A DNA stretch of 64,000 nt, taken from the IMG/VR virus record IMGVR_UViG_3300027963_003275, positions 10,774 to 74,773 of that record. One strand, 5' to 3'. Made by a program: the position numbers and the translations under genes. The notes under the pieces are model-generated. The model worked only from the letters and a program-made list of their open reading frames with translations. It did not search any database and was not told where the DNA came from. Source of the stretch: a virus (Duplodnaviria > Caudoviricetes). Of this stretch, positions 10,206 through 47,817 are shown in pieces (within the stretch, counting starts at the first letter, position 1; every line of letters starts with the position of its first letter).

Positions 10206-10616
10206 ATGTTTAAATTTGGAAAACAAAAACCAGATATAAAACAATATGCAATCATAGGAATTGTATTGAGTTCTATTATTGCAACACTTTCCCAATGTAG
10301 TGGTATTAAGCAAGATAGTATTTGGGACTTACTTGACGAAGTTCAAAGAAGATATTTCCCACAAACTATTCTCAACGACTTTGTGATTAAAGATCCAGAG
10401 AAACTTGATAGAAGAATCAATCGTGATGTTGATGCAGCAATCGCAGAGTATGAACGATTGACAGGAGATGATGGAAAGGTTAAAATACCTTCACCACGAT
10501 ACTCAGAGAAACCACAAGACGGGTCTTATGCCCAATCAGTTCTTGGAGGTGAAATGAGATTGTGTGCTCCATGGGTTGATGACTGCCCAAAAGATGCGAA
10601 ATTAATTCAGCGGTAG
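10206..10616 (+). CDS. hypothetical membrane-anchored protein
   Basis: TM segment YAIIGIVLSSIIATLSQC; C-terminal CAPWVDDC; stop codon lies inside tRNA-Gly. Confidence 0.7.
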   Translation: MFKFGKQKPDIKQYAIIGIVLSSIIATLSQCSGIKQDSIWDLLDEVQRRYFPQTILNDFVIKDPEKLDRRINRDVDAAIAEYERLTGDDGKVKIPSPRYSEKPQDGSYAQSVLGGEMRLCAPWVDDCPKDAKLIQR

Positions 10617-10667
10617 AATGTCTGCCTTCCAAGCAGAACGTCAGGAGTTCGAATCTCCTATTTCGCT
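10596..10667 (+). tRNA. trnG: tRNA-Gly(TCC)
   Basis: Acceptor GCGAAAT/ATTTCGC, D arm ATTC/GAAT, anticodon arm TCTGC-CTTCCAA-GCAGA, T arm AGGAG-TTCGAAT-CTCCT; CCA not encoded. Confidence 0.93.
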
Positions 10668-10726: not shown

Positions 10727-11617
10727 ATGAATTTTAAATCATTTTTTGCTAGTGCCGTTGTTGTTTCTGCAATGACCGCTCCTGCTATGGCACAAGTCAC
10801 CAGTGTTTCTCAACTGAGTGATGTGCAACCTACTGACTGGTCTTATCAGGCAGTTTCAAATCTGGTATCGCGTTATGGATGTGTTGCTGGTTTCCCTAAT
10901 GGAACTTTTCAACCAGGACAACCTGCCACTCGTGCCCAACTTGCTGCACTGACTAGTGCTTGCCTGGATCGCATTAGTGAGTATCAGACTGCTGCTGATG
11001 CTGCTCTTGCTGCCGCGCTTCGTGCTCAATTCTCCAAAGAAATTGCTGCCACTAATACTCGTGTAACGACTCTGGAAGTTGCTTCTGCTCGTAAGGCACA
11101 AGGAGTTGGTCAGTATGTAGGTGTTGGCGTTCTGCTGAATAAGCAAGGAGTTGCTGGCGGTGGTAATGGTACTAATCAAACCATCTCCGGTGCTACTGTT
11201 CAGGCACGTCTTCCTGTTGCTACTGCTTGGGGAAATGAAGTTTCAATTCGCCCTTATGGCAACTTTGTTGGTAACCCTGCTGGACAGATTGGTGCTGCTG
11301 GTGGTGCTCTTGCTACTTATGATTATTCCGTTTCACGCAAGAATCTTGCAAATGGAACTAAAGTAAGTCGTGCAAACATCTATGGTGGTATTGGTGTTCA
11401 AACTCCTTTTGTGAATAACACCACTTCCAATTATCAATCTGCTGTTGGTTCTCAGACTCAAGTTGTTCTTGCTTTGGGTGTTGAAGGTCGTATTACTGAT
11501 TCCTTGGTTGGTTTTGCAGATCTTAAGTTCCCCACTACCAATGCTGGTAACAGTTATGGTAGTTCAAACGGAACTTATAGTCCCGTGTTCACAACTGGTC
11601 TTGGTATCAAGTTCTGA
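10727..11617 (+). CDS. SLH-domain outer-membrane protein (N-terminus like cyanobacterial Som/OprB-type porins)
   Basis: Signal peptide, AQVTSVSQLSDVQPTDWSYQAV..LVSRYGCVAGFPNGTF SLH signature, amphipathic beta strands, C-terminal Phe (TGLGIKF). Confidence 0.85.
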   Translation: MNFKSFFASAVVVSAMTAPAMAQVTSVSQLSDVQPTDWSYQAVSNLVSRYGCVAGFPNGTFQPGQPATRAQLAALTSACLDRISEYQTAADAALAAALRAQFSKEIAATNTRVTTLEVASARKAQGVGQYVGVGVLLNKQGVAGGGNGTNQTISGATVQARLPVATAWGNEVSIRPYGNFVGNPAGQIGAAGGALATYDYSVSRKNLANGTKVSRANIYGGIGVQTPFVNNTTSNYQSAVGSQTQVVLALGVEGRITDSLVGFADLKFPTTNAGNSYGSSNGTYSPVFTTGLGIKF

Positions 11618-12856: not shown

Positions 12857-12928
12857 GGGAGTATAGCTTAATGGTCAGAGCGGCCTGCTTATAACGGGTT
12901 AGTCTGGGTTCAACTCCCAGTATTCCCA
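12857..12928 (+). tRNA. trnI: tRNA-Ile(TAT)
   Basis: Acceptor GGGAGTA/TATTCCC, anticodon arm GCCTG-CTTATAA-CGGGT, T arm CTGGG-TTCAACT-CCCAG, discriminator A. Confidence 0.9.
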
Positions 12929-38084: not shown

Positions 38085-38229
38085 TTGACAACATTGGCAT
38101 CCAGTGGTATGATAAATAGATGTTAAGGAATCAACACATTTCTTAATCTTCTGCAACCGAGACCATCAGAAGTAAAGCATCTCTCATACCTGCACTGGAG
38201 GGTGTCGTGGAGTATACTGTACTTGTTCA
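38085..38229 (+). promoter_or_regulatory. psbA-type promoter plus truncated PhotoRC-II-like leader (first copy)
   Basis: TTGACA-N17-TATGAT; shares TATGATAAATAGATGTTAAGG and TTTCTTAATCTT with the psbA leader; GGAGG-loop hairpin present; ends at GTTCA. Confidence 0.7.
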
Positions 38230-39468: not shown

Positions 39469-39499
39469 AAATAGATGTTAAGGGATGTAACGTTTCTTA

Positions 39500-39620
39500 A
39501 TCTTGCCGCACCAGGAATAGGCAAGTAAAATCCGTCCTTATACCTACGCAGGAGGGTTGCGTAGGAATACTTTTACCGTTCAGCACCTCCTGAACTATTA
39601 CCTACCCCTTTAACGAAAAA
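39500..39620 (+). ncRNA. structured psbA 5' leader (PhotoRC-II-like motif)
   Basis: CCTACGCA-GGAGGGT-TGCGTAGG and GTTCAG-CACCTC-CTGAAC hairpins with complementary loops (GAGG/CCTC); position typical of the cyanophage PhotoRC-II motif. Confidence 0.7.
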
Positions 39621-47017: not shown

Positions 47018-47085
47018 AAGTAGCAGCACGATACAAAAAAAATATCTGTTGCTACTTTTTCATGTTTATGCTAATATATACAGTA

Positions 47086-47127
47086 CGTTCAACCCATTTT
47101 GGGTCGGAAGTAAGCCGACGCGGAACG
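47086..47127 (+). ncRNA. glutamine riboswitch-like aptamer 1 (glnA/Downstream-peptide type)
   Basis: P1 CGTTC/GAACG, P2 ACCC-ATTTT-GGGT, CGGAAGTAA segment as in the glnA motif. Confidence 0.7.
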
Positions 47128-47130
47128 GAT

Positions 47131-47299
47131 CGTTCATCTATGGAAACACTCTTACTCAGTTGTCTTCAGGCACAATTGATTATTGGAAGAGTTATGAAGG
47201 CAAATATGCCTCCACAAACTCGTAATGATTTAATTTGGGAAATCAAAAAGGTTACTCCCAAAAGGTGTAAAATAGACGCAAACGCCGACTGAAGGAACG
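47131..47299 (+). ncRNA. glutamine riboswitch-like aptamer 2 with ~130-nt P2 loop
   Basis: CGTTCA-TCTAT (47131-47141) ... ATAGA-CGCAAACGCCGACTGAAG-GAACG (47272-47299). Confidence 0.6.
47140..47292 (+). CDS. 50-aa ORF embedded in aptamer 2
   Basis: METLLLSCLQAQLIIGRVMKANMPPQTRNDLIWEIKKVTPKRCKIDANAD*. Confidence 0.6.
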   Translation: METLLLSCLQAQLIIGRVMKANMPPQTRNDLIWEIKKVTPKRCKIDANAD

Positions 47300-47332
47300 C
47301 TCTTTAATCTAAACAACTAAGGAGAAAACCTA

Positions 47333-47440
47333 ATGTCACAAGTAAAAACTAAAAACAACTGGCAGCTTGTTTTAATCAAGCAACAAAAAGAAAAAGAACA
47401 ACGCAAACACCAAGCAAAACTTGCAATGGCAATGCGTTAA
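47333..47440 (+). CDS. small Gln/Lys-rich peptide downstream of the riboswitch-like element (35 aa)
   Basis: Strong RBS AAGGAG; MSQVKTKNNWQLVLIKQQKEKEQRKHQAKLAMAMR*; terminator follows. Confidence 0.7.
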   Translation: MSQVKTKNNWQLVLIKQQKEKEQRKHQAKLAMAMR

Positions 47441-47446
47441 TAATCT

Positions 47447-47473
47447 AGGAGGGATTGATTCCCTCCTTTTTTT
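47447..47473 (+). terminator. intrinsic terminator overlapping a TTGATT-N17-TAGAAT promoter
   Basis: AGGAGGGA-TTGAT-TCCCTCCT then T tract. Confidence 0.85.
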
Positions 47474-47504
47474 ATGCTAGAATGAGATGAGATAACTTTA
47501 TTAT

Positions 47505-47660
47505 ATGGATAGAGAAAAAGTTAAATTGATTATAAGAAATATGGAACTGCTTTTAGATTCTTTGAAAGCAGAAATCTATACAGACGTTCAAGCACATAAA
47601 GTAAAAAGTAATCAACGAATTATTGATTACGATGAAGTATTTGAGGATAATGATGACTAG
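47505..47660 (+). CDS. conserved small hypothetical protein (51 aa, not in ORF track)
   Basis: MDREKVKLIIRNMELLLDSLKAEIY...DYDEVFEDNDD*. Confidence 0.75.
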   Translation: MDREKVKLIIRNMELLLDSLKAEIYTDVQAHKVKSNQRIIDYDEVFEDNDD

Positions 47661-47817
47661 CAGATCAAAACAGTTGGTTAAACTACTTAAAAAATTAATC
47701 AAACAGGAACATTTGTATTCAGATAAACAACTGAAAGAAATGAAATCACAATTGAGAGTTGTGGAAACCGAACTTGTTCAATTGGAAAAACTTACATCAA
47801 AAGGATTTGGAAAATGA
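47653..47817 (+). CDS. hypothetical coiled-coil protein
   Basis: Ends SKGFGK; overlaps both neighbours. Confidence 0.7.
   Translation: MTSRSKQLVKLLKKLIKQEHLYSDKQLKEMKSQLRVVETELVQLEKLTSKGFGK

Follow-up and report, generated by a model that had tools for sequence, protein, structure and literature searches.

The window analysed here is a stretch of 64,000 nucleotides (nt) from a virus (Duplodnaviria; Caudoviricetes), positions 10,774 to 74,773 of IMG/VR record IMGVR_UViG_3300027963_003275. Our subject is a glutamine-riboswitch-like RNA leader in it, together with the complete gene that this leader encloses and the small gene that follows. A first-pass annotation, made from the sequence alone, had described two riboswitch-like units 3 nt apart, each framed by CGTTC and GAACG, with an open reading frame (ORF) of 50 codons threaded through the second unit and a gene for a peptide of 35 amino acids (aa) behind it. 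All of these elements are present. The frames are CGTTC 47086-47090 with GAACG 47123-47127 for unit 1, and CGTTC 47131-47135 with GAACG 47295-47299 for unit 2, and the gap between them is GAT (47128-47130). The sequence GCCGAC occurs in both units (47114-47119 and 47284-47289), the hairpin arms TCTAT and ATAGA lie at 47137-47141 and 47272-47276, and the 50-aa ORF runs from the ATG at 47140 to the TGA at 47290-47292. The 35-aa ORF (47333-47440) stands behind AAGGAG and is followed by a terminator-like hairpin at 47447-47467 with a T run. Relatives of the locus carry unit 2 either in a long form, as in the window, or in a compact form. The parts of the leader and of gene 2 are given below, named for the nested topology that we prefer, with an outer and an inner core.

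47086-47090, + strand: CGUUC, 5' strand of helix P1 of the outer core (of unit 1 in a side-by-side model); invariant in 61/61 compact tandems.
47092-47104, + strand: hairpin P2a (ACCCA UUU UGGGU), from the Rfam alignment; four pairs covary in relatives.
47105-47112, + strand: junction strand J2/3, CGGAAGUA, with the AGUA half of loop-E; fits the RF01739 consensus; in unit 1 only.
47113-47120, + strand: strand a of the shared helix P3 (AGCCGACG); pairs with 47283-47290.
47123-47135, + strand: GAACG-GAU-CGUUC, the inner P1 hairpin in the nested model (RNAalifold); side by side, the 3' strand of unit 1, the linker and the 5' strand of unit 2.
47137-47141, + strand: 5' arm of hairpin P2b, UCUAU; overlaps the embedded start codon; covariation in 132 distinct units.
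47140-47292, + strand: embedded gene, stop codon included, for a 50-aa protein of family phrog_504 that is predicted to fold as a two-helix hairpin.
47272-47276, + strand: 3' arm of P2b, AUAGA, also the codons Ile-Asp of the embedded ORF.
47277-47282, + strand: J2/3 of the inner core, CGCAAA; CGCA invariant in 61/61 compact tandems.
47283-47290, + strand: strand b of the shared helix P3 (CGCCGACU), ending on the U of the embedded stop codon.
47291-47299, + strand: GAAG (with the GAA half of loop-E), then GAACG, the 3' strand of outer P1.
47300-47324, + strand: candidate expression platform, in which CUCUUUA (47300-47306) could pair with UAAGGAG (47318-47324) of the Shine-Dalgarno region.
47333-47440, + strand: gene 2, a Gln/Lys-rich peptide of 35 aa, behind AAGGAG (47319-47324).

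Aptamer identity was assessed by a permissive Rfam search over 601 nt around the locus, with gathering cut-offs of 35 bits for Glutamine (RF01739, glutamine-I) and 33 bits for Glutamine-II (RF01704, Downstream-peptide). Unit 1 (47084-47131) scores 34.2 bits (E 1.2e-5) on RF01739; RF01704 matches unit 1 only and at 18.8 bits (E 0.03), below its cut-off. Unit 2 of the window gives no RF01739 match even in this permissive search, because its hairpin carries the 130-nt insert, and at gathering thresholds there is no match within the locus. We used natural compact relatives as a proxy for an insert-free unit 2. The unit 2 of phage S-CREM1, which has a 3' half identical to that of the window and a short hairpin instead of the insert, reaches 33.5 bits on RF01739, and unit 1 of relatives scores 35.6, 34.2 and 28.9 bits. 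The authors of S-CREM1 annotated its 99-nt pair as one 'glnA' riboswitch of 44.0 bits (PMC9964418).

The individual features of RF01739 are found as follows. Two copies each of the P1 strands CGUUC and GAACG are present in the window, and both P2a and P2b are covariation-supported P2 hairpins placed directly after CGUUCA. The pattern CGTTCA-N(4-30)-CGSAAR occurs once in the window, where 0.10 occurrences are expected. The loop-E of the family is present only when CGGAAGUA of unit 1 (47105-47112) is combined with GAAG of unit 2 (47291-47294), and the P3 that separates the two loop-E strands joins one unit to the other, 47113-47120 with 47283-47290, and is not a local hairpin. The score of unit 1 and that of the compact unit 2 of S-CREM1 bear out the original reading of the element as glutamine-riboswitch-like, with both units being glutamine-I-type aptamer sequence, and the leader as a whole is predicted to be a double glutamine-I (glnA-type) riboswitch that would bind glutamine.

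Comparison of the two units reveals how they are joined. Unit 1 has CGGAAGUA and no GAAG, while unit 2 has GAAG, CGCAAA in place of CGGAAGUA and no local P3; thus each unit carries just one half of loop-E, AGUA in unit 1 and GAAG in unit 2. The base after GCCGAC of unit 1 (N) and the base before GCCGAC of unit 2 (N') pair in 162 of 163 distinct tandems, against 90.6 expected if they were independent, as U-A in 112, G-C in 32, A-U in 17 and U-G in 1, with one U.C. The pairing is seen in the long form (100/101) and in the compact form (62/62) alike. These bases belong to an inter-unit helix of 8 base pairs (bp), AGCCGACN with N'GCCGACU, that contains two C.A mismatches; in sequences with the GUUGAC variant of strand b, one A.C mismatch becomes A-U. 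A second pair covaries as well. Targeted variant scans found 45 loci in which G49 of strand a is changed to A, and the partner is U in all 20 distinct sequences that include the 3' core; where position 49 is G, the partner is C in 134, U in 28 and G in 1. Fisher's test of G/A against partner, run with 135/28, gives p ~7e-14, a value that is only indicative as the sequences are related. The same scans returned no strand-a variants at G46 or C51, and two loci at C48.

Unguided RNAalifold on the 61 compact tandems gives a nested topology, in which the first CGUUC pairs with the last GAACG. In this set 92.6% of the cells of the nested model are paired, compared with 82.1% in shuffled alignments (0 of 500 reach the observed value) and at most 49.8% in slid registers. 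The register that RNAalifold chose for the shared helix (AGU with ACU) fails to explain the N-N' covariation and was rejected in favor of 47113-47120 with 47283-47290. When the shared helix is taken as P3, the outer core follows the RF01739 consensus position for position: CGUUC, P2a, CGGAAGUA, P3, GAAG and GAACG. Most likely, the two cores sit at the two ends of this helix. The outer core would be the canonical three-way junction with its loop-E, and the inner core a circular permutation of it, with P1 closed by the GAU loop (47123-47135), followed by P2b, CGCAAA and P3. The 2 nt that link strand a to the next GAACG could hardly bridge the distance from the far end of an 8-bp helix to the unit 1 junction, an argument from geometry and not from data. 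We consider the anatomy of the element solid and its nested topology probable.

The first-pass annotation had described the locus as a tandem, and the rival explanation that survives best keeps to that picture: an ordinary side-by-side pair of independent glutamine-I aptamers, in which the gene merely occupies the loop of the second and the helix between the units amounts to no more than a docking contact. Each unit does have its own CGUUC...GAACG, each is recognized separately by RF01739, and the predicted energies slightly favor this fold (values are given below). Sherlock 2022 lists 157 glutamine doublets, along with four triplets, as pseudo-cooperative tandem riboswitches with multiple expression platforms (PMC9481103). 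In that class each aptamer is complete and has its own platform. Here, however, unit 1 is without a GAAG strand and unit 2 without an AGUA strand or the means to form a P3 locally, the units are linked by two covarying pairs, the 2-nt join would be too short, and unit 1, just 3 nt from its neighbor, has no platform of its own; RNAalifold, moreover, gives the nested fold. The picture of independence gives way to two units joined by a covarying 8-bp helix with a single loop-E split between them, and we hold the side-by-side arrangement to be unlikely.

The 130-nt insert lies in the hairpin loop of P2b of unit 2. Pairs 1-5 of P2b, counted across the insert, are canonical in 100, 100, 99, 95 and 92% of the 132 distinct long units, and positions 3-5 use four pair types each (arms such as UCUAU/AUAGA, UCUCAU/AUGGGA, UCCCA/UGGGA, UCCUCA/UGAGGA, UCUUAU/AUAAGA and UCAUCA/UGAUGA). 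Registers slid by 1-3 nt are mostly 0-60% canonical. All five P2b pairs covary in the 61 compact tandems too, and in relatives all four P2a pairs covary, with 99.6% paired. A P2b longer than 5-6 bp was considered and rejected, as positions 6-9 are only 45-69% paired. The notion that P2 arms 130 nt apart still belong to one hairpin is thereby upheld: the arms covary in the 132 distinct units, and the insert is a true hairpin-loop insertion.

Two further observations concern these hairpins. One relative (L048, 679-805) has a 'compact' unit 2 of 72 nt whose hairpin contains a direct repeat of ~17 nt (TATTAGGATTCTTAATA twice); this repeat-bearing unit may be an intermediate, or another insertion in the same loop. 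In some phages (L003 771-827, L062 and L095) the 8-bp hairpin UUCGCUAU...AUAGCGAA, a typical P2b of compact forms, serves as P2a, and its presence there suggests that hairpins are exchanged between the two cores.

The embedded frame is open for 49-69 aa from its first ATG in 131 of the 132 distinct long units. The exception (L118, an IMGVR_UViG contig) has a 171-nt unit with a frameshift that leaves 17 codons; both halves of its aptamer are intact. The A of the ATG falls at position 4-7 of the P2b arm in 132/132 units. The stop codon is U(G/A)A directly before AGGAACG in 123/132 (TGA in 89, TAA in 34); otherwise it lies inside the 3' arm of P2b (three units) or slightly beyond the U(G/A)A (five units). 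Within the clade of the window, unit 2 measures 169, 172, 175 or 178 nt, lengths that differ by multiples of three. The entropies at the three codon positions are 0.86/0.48/1.17 for 48 ORFs and 1.26/0.86/1.39 for the central part of 123 ORFs. In the last six codons (Ile-Asp-Ala-Asn-Ala-Asp) they are 0.41/0.39/0.44, near-invariant at all positions, as expected if RNA function and coding both constrain them. These six codons and the UGA are at the same time the 3' arm of P2b, the junction and strand b of the shared helix, so that 21 nt are shared with the aptamer core. Open frames, codon-position entropy and length steps of three support the view that the internal 50-codon ORF is a conserved protein gene.

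An in-frame upstream start is absent in 115/132 units, and the window is among the 17 that have one. The frame of the window is open back through unit 1 to ATGs at 47062 and 47068, from which gene callers predict a 76-aa product (47062-47292, P0026). This extension is probably an artefact, because just 17 of the 132 relatives have any in-frame upstream start. In three marine loci (L148, L167 and L173) the ORF has 59-62 aa, belongs to a distinct subfamily and ends with TAA or TAG within the 3' arm of P2b.

Four residues, C8, C43, A47 and D50, never change in an alignment of 118 proteins that are 20-90% identical to that of the window. The AlphaFold2 model consists of helices 8-20 and 25-37 plus a loose tail and has a predicted local distance difference test score (pLDDT) of 85.1. 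The family corresponds to phrog_504 (function unknown): 105 of the 118 members match it, with a best E of 3.3e-25, and the window protein itself does so with E 6.2e-4 (20.4 bits, profile positions 10-53 of 53). A profile of the embedded protein finds 844 protein clusters at E <= 0.001 in a large protein collection. There was no match to a Pfam family, the best hit to PDB profiles had E >= 0.57, a Foldseek search of the predicted fold against the PDB gave nothing at E <= 0.001 and only generic helical hairpins, and an ESM Atlas search returned no usable match. One protein of 108 aa (P0113) that is found by the embedded-ORF profile has PF14105 (DUF4278) in addition, and could be a fusion of the embedded gene with gene 2, either natural or mis-called.

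One could instead regard the embedded frame as a regulatory upstream ORF, whose translation remodels the leader and couples ribosomes to gene 2 while the peptide itself is functionless. The position of its start in P2b and of its stop beside the 3' strand of outer P1 and the anti-Shine-Dalgarno sequence would suit this role, as would a ratio of nonsynonymous to synonymous substitution rates (dN/dS) of only 0.55 and the failure to find a family of known function or a fold match in Pfam, PDB profiles, Foldseek and Atlas. A leader peptide, however, would not require a conserved two-helix fold, and this one is predicted with confidence; two cysteines and two more residues are invariant across the family, and the length is kept at 49-69 aa. 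We hold this account to be unlikely too, slightly more so than the side-by-side one. That a selfish or accidental insertion destroyed the second aptamer, leaving its flanks as decaying relics and unit 1, if any, to sense glutamine, is very improbable: Rfam does find nothing across the interrupted unit, and compact and insert-bearing forms do coexist in related phages, but no part of the locus is better conserved than the 3' half, whose last six codons show hardly any variation even at third positions, the P2b arms on either side of the insert covary, and strands a and b covary as well in long as in compact forms.

Our best explanation is thus a double riboswitch whose cores are joined by a shared helix and whose P2b encloses a complete 50-codon gene, and we put its probability at about 70%. 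Its anatomy, conservation, covariation and coding signature are direct observations. A number of points tell against it. In the window the nearest-neighbor energy is -49.5 kcal/mol for the nested fold, compared with -52.9 kcal/mol side by side and -56.3 kcal/mol unconstrained; across the 61 compact tandems the nested fold is worse by 2.5 kcal/mol on average, and it is lower in only 8, the side-by-side fold being better in the other 53. All four P1 strands are invariant (61/61), hence the partners of CGUUC and GAACG cannot be assigned by covariation, and the two C.A mismatches of the shared helix are present in most sequences. P2b has just 5 bp to close a 130-nt loop, and a few relatives lose one or two of its pairs (CAAGA in three, CTAGA-type arms in three). 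Unit 1 of the window stays 0.8 bit below the Rfam cut-off, and nothing at the locus reaches a gathering score. The dN/dS of the non-overlapping central ORF, proposed as a check in the first-pass annotation, is only moderately low, with a median of 0.55 and a 5-95% range of 0.15-1.13 over 2181 pairs, and the signal is weaker than anticipated. Inspection of the sequence before the embedded AUG showed no clear Shine-Dalgarno element. The cover of the locus by RNA-library contigs, described below, could stem from DNA carry-over. Glutamine binding, translation of either ORF and the direction of control are inferences.

Gene 2 begins behind the candidate expression platform. The CUCUUUA/UAAGGAG hairpin has a minimum free energy of -7.7 kcal/mol (z -1.35), which is not significant by itself; members of the freshwater clade conserve CTCTTTAA. 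The platform differs between the marine and freshwater clades: past the last GGAACG, marine members (e.g., L124 680-730 and L127 750-795) have a G-rich stretch and CCC(C)UACUACUUUGGAG where the others have CUCUUUAA ... UAAGGAG. In nearly all of the loci listed, gene 2 of the relatives begins M(A/S)(K/Q)V(T/V)YRG and is IF17/DUF4278-like; that of phage DSL-LC02 scores 20.3 bits against DUF4278, below the cut-off of 25.3. Gene 2 of the window matches no Pfam family at E <= 1, DUF4278 (PF14105) included. Its 35-aa product is without the YRG part and equals the NW..QLAMAM tail that in relatives is fused to, or stands behind, the YRG/DUF4278-like peptide; its match to the C-terminal half of the protein from S-CREM1 has 15 of 28 residues identical (E 9e-8), and similar short forms occur in L055, L063 and L098. 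The prediction of a small downstream gene and a terminator is thus correct as to their presence, but the gene is not the usual DUF4278/YRG peptide and is, in the window, a rare derived remnant.

The tail peptide also occurs in other arrangements. A third small ORF with an NW..Q(L/A)..M tail overlaps or follows the YRG gene in several loci (L001 1251-1352, L002 ~1165-1260 and L126 793-906); S-CREM1 has the tail and the YRG gene as a fusion, and the window retains the tail alone. The small genes of the cassette are being shuffled.

How such a leader might act can be outlined from its anatomy and from studied relatives. The glutamine pocket of the class lies in the P1 helix with the J2/3 strand (Huang 2019, PMC6698751), and since both cores retain the P1 and J2/3 parts, two glutamine sites are plausible. 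Glutamine-I and glutamine-II riboswitches are on-switches for IF17-type genes, and it has been proposed that nucleotides beside P1 mask the ribosome binding site (Klahn 2018, PMC6212724). In the glutamine-bound fold the embedded AUG would be buried in P2b, and the embedded gene would be translated less. Conversely, a ribosome on the embedded gene would melt P2b, the shared helix and outer P1, and one mRNA could not sense and be translated simultaneously. Burial of the AUG by folding and opening of these helices by a translating ribosome both follow from the anatomy, and the constant place of the start codon, its A being at arm position 4-7 in every unit, supports the earlier idea that folding would hide the internal start and translation would unfold the aptamer. 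The ribosome would halt 3 nt before the 3' strand of outer P1, beside the CUCUUUA that can mask the Shine-Dalgarno sequence of gene 2, so that gene 2 should respond to translation of the embedded gene as well. By analogy with the gifB leader, glutamine binding would turn gene 2 on. The switch between two small proteins that this amounts to is one we can only infer. As for the role of the peptides, interference with host nitrogen assimilation is the leading guess, because the relatives of gene 2 are IF17-like. We offer a broader scheme tentatively and regard it as doubtful: a single cooperative sensor with two glutamine sites and a captured gene, in which ribosome and ligand antagonize each other, the phrog_504 protein would be made at low and the IF17-like or tail peptide at high host glutamine, and the near-isoenergetic P1 pairings, nested and side by side, would be the switch states. 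Such a leader would toggle, according to nitrogen status and through translation, between two effectors of host nitrogen metabolism.

The double-unit layout is widespread among phages. When viral contigs were scanned twice with exact patterns for the unit 1/unit 2 junction, at least 119 and at least 120 loci were found, at least 239 in all. Together with eight isolate loci and the window this gave 248 parsed junctions, with a long unit 2 (160-227 nt) in 143, a compact one (40-72 nt) in 90 and no 3' core in the available DNA in 15. Among isolates, the long form is present in P-SSM2, S-SSM7 and P-RSM6, and S-PM2 has the compact one. A scan of cellular DNA with the exact pattern, one genome per prokaryote species, gave 42 matches. 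Thirty-six were set aside as GC-rich chance matches with no unit 1, and six lie on AT-rich phage-like contigs in metagenome-assembled or single-amplified genome bins. No chromosomal cyanobacterial copy was seen among these 42 exact matches, a search that diverged copies would escape.

The window belongs to a T4-like cyanophage of freshwater type, and the nearest isolates of this phage are Kyanoviridae from fresh or estuarine water (S-SRM01, DSL-LC02, DSL-LC03 and S-CREM1). The ORF list of the window places ThyX-like and PhoH-like ORFs on either side of the riboswitch and its genes. Three elements delimit the cassette.

47020-47061, + strand: terminator-like hairpin with T run (stem 47020-47028/47048-47056), read from the sequence; it would end the upstream gene (stop codon 47015-47017).
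47072-47077, + strand: -10-like TAATAT, ~8 nt before the first aptamer base; putative transcript start.
47447-47474, + strand: intrinsic-terminator-like hairpin (8 pairs, 5 of them G-C; 47447-47467) with T run, from the terminator scan.

A hairpin like that at 47020-47061 occurs at the same place in S-SRM01; a consensus terminator scan did not list the one in the window. A TATAAT-like box stands at the same distance in S-SRM01, S-CREM1, DSL-LC03, S-PM2 and S-SSM7, and a promoter scan of the locus gave no -35 match for TAATAT. Positions ~47084-47474 may form one short phage transcript, to judge from the promoter-to-terminator look of the cassette and the same features in relatives. Contigs of RNA libraries from four studies cover the cassette, one of them spanning 47097-47390 with a single difference. 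These contigs show no ends, and their uncovered stretches and small-share runs (X5-X7) are uninformative.

Elsewhere in the window lie two PhotoRC-II RNAs (38134-38223 and 39488-39578, + strand; 43.3 and 49.5 bits, gathering cut-off 39), a cis-regulatory motif known from cyanophage photosynthesis genes, and two tRNA genes (10596-10667 and 12857-12928, + strand; 68.9 and 66.8 bits). Between the cassette and thyX are small overlapping ORFs of 51 and 64 aa (47505-47660 and 47623-47817, + strand), and the DNA at 47505-47817 is conserved with S-SRM01 and several marine cyanophages.

The element described here belongs to a known riboswitch class and has a new architecture, novelty being limited to the literature searched. 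Full-text searches returned no description of a gene inside an aptamer or of the shared helix; Ames & Breaker 2011, Ren 2015 and the additional files of Weinberg 2010 may bear on the point. According to McCown 2017 riboswitches are rare in phages, with two glutamine aptamers detected in cyanophages (PMC5473149); the viral loci counted here and the classic isolates P-SSM2, S-SSM7, P-RSM6 and S-PM2 bear on that statement. The covarying inter-unit helix argues for one joint structure as opposed to independent pseudo-cooperative doublets (PMC9481103). Riboswitch aptamers are treated as non-coding; in this one 21 nt are both aptamer core and codons, and a whole gene occupies a hairpin loop. It offers a natural system in which ligand sensing and translation should compete on one RNA, it is overlooked by standard Rfam annotation in the window, and it points to two unstudied small phage proteins that would be tied to host nitrogen status.

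The closest known system is the glutamine-I riboswitch (RF01739) as found in the gifB/IF17 leader of Synechocystis (Klahn 2018, PMC6212724). Shared with it are the CGUUC/GAACG P1, the P2 after CGUUCA, the CGGAAGUA...GAAG loop-E and P3, the small IF17/DUF4278-like genes downstream in relatives and, as the likely platform, a sequence beside P1 that would mask the ribosome binding site. Unlike gifB-type elements, the phage-borne element, missed at gathering score, has two cores that share one P3, the second circularly permuted and without loop-E, and a protein gene that fills a hairpin loop and has 21 nt in common with the core. The compact double riboswitches of S-CREM1 and S-PM2 have the same two cores, shared-helix strands and 3' half, and are followed by a YRG-type peptide in S-PM2 and by YRG fused to the NW..QLAMAM tail in S-CREM1. 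Their P2b, in contrast, is a plain hairpin of 4-8 bp with no gene, whereas in the window a coding insert of 130 nt forms its loop.

The tandem glycine riboswitch combines two aptamers with one expression platform and has inter-aptamer contacts. It is listed as a 'dual aptamer' (PMC9481103) and, like the present element, brings two homologous ligand-binding domains into contact over one platform; here, however, the domains appear to be nested round a shared Watson-Crick helix instead of docked, and one of them holds a gene. In leader-peptide or upstream-ORF control, as in attenuation and translational coupling, a ribosome on the upstream frame decides the downstream RNA structure. Unlike in those systems, the upstream frame of the window lies inside a predicted ligand-binding aptamer, and its product is a conserved, foldable protein instead of a short sensor peptide.

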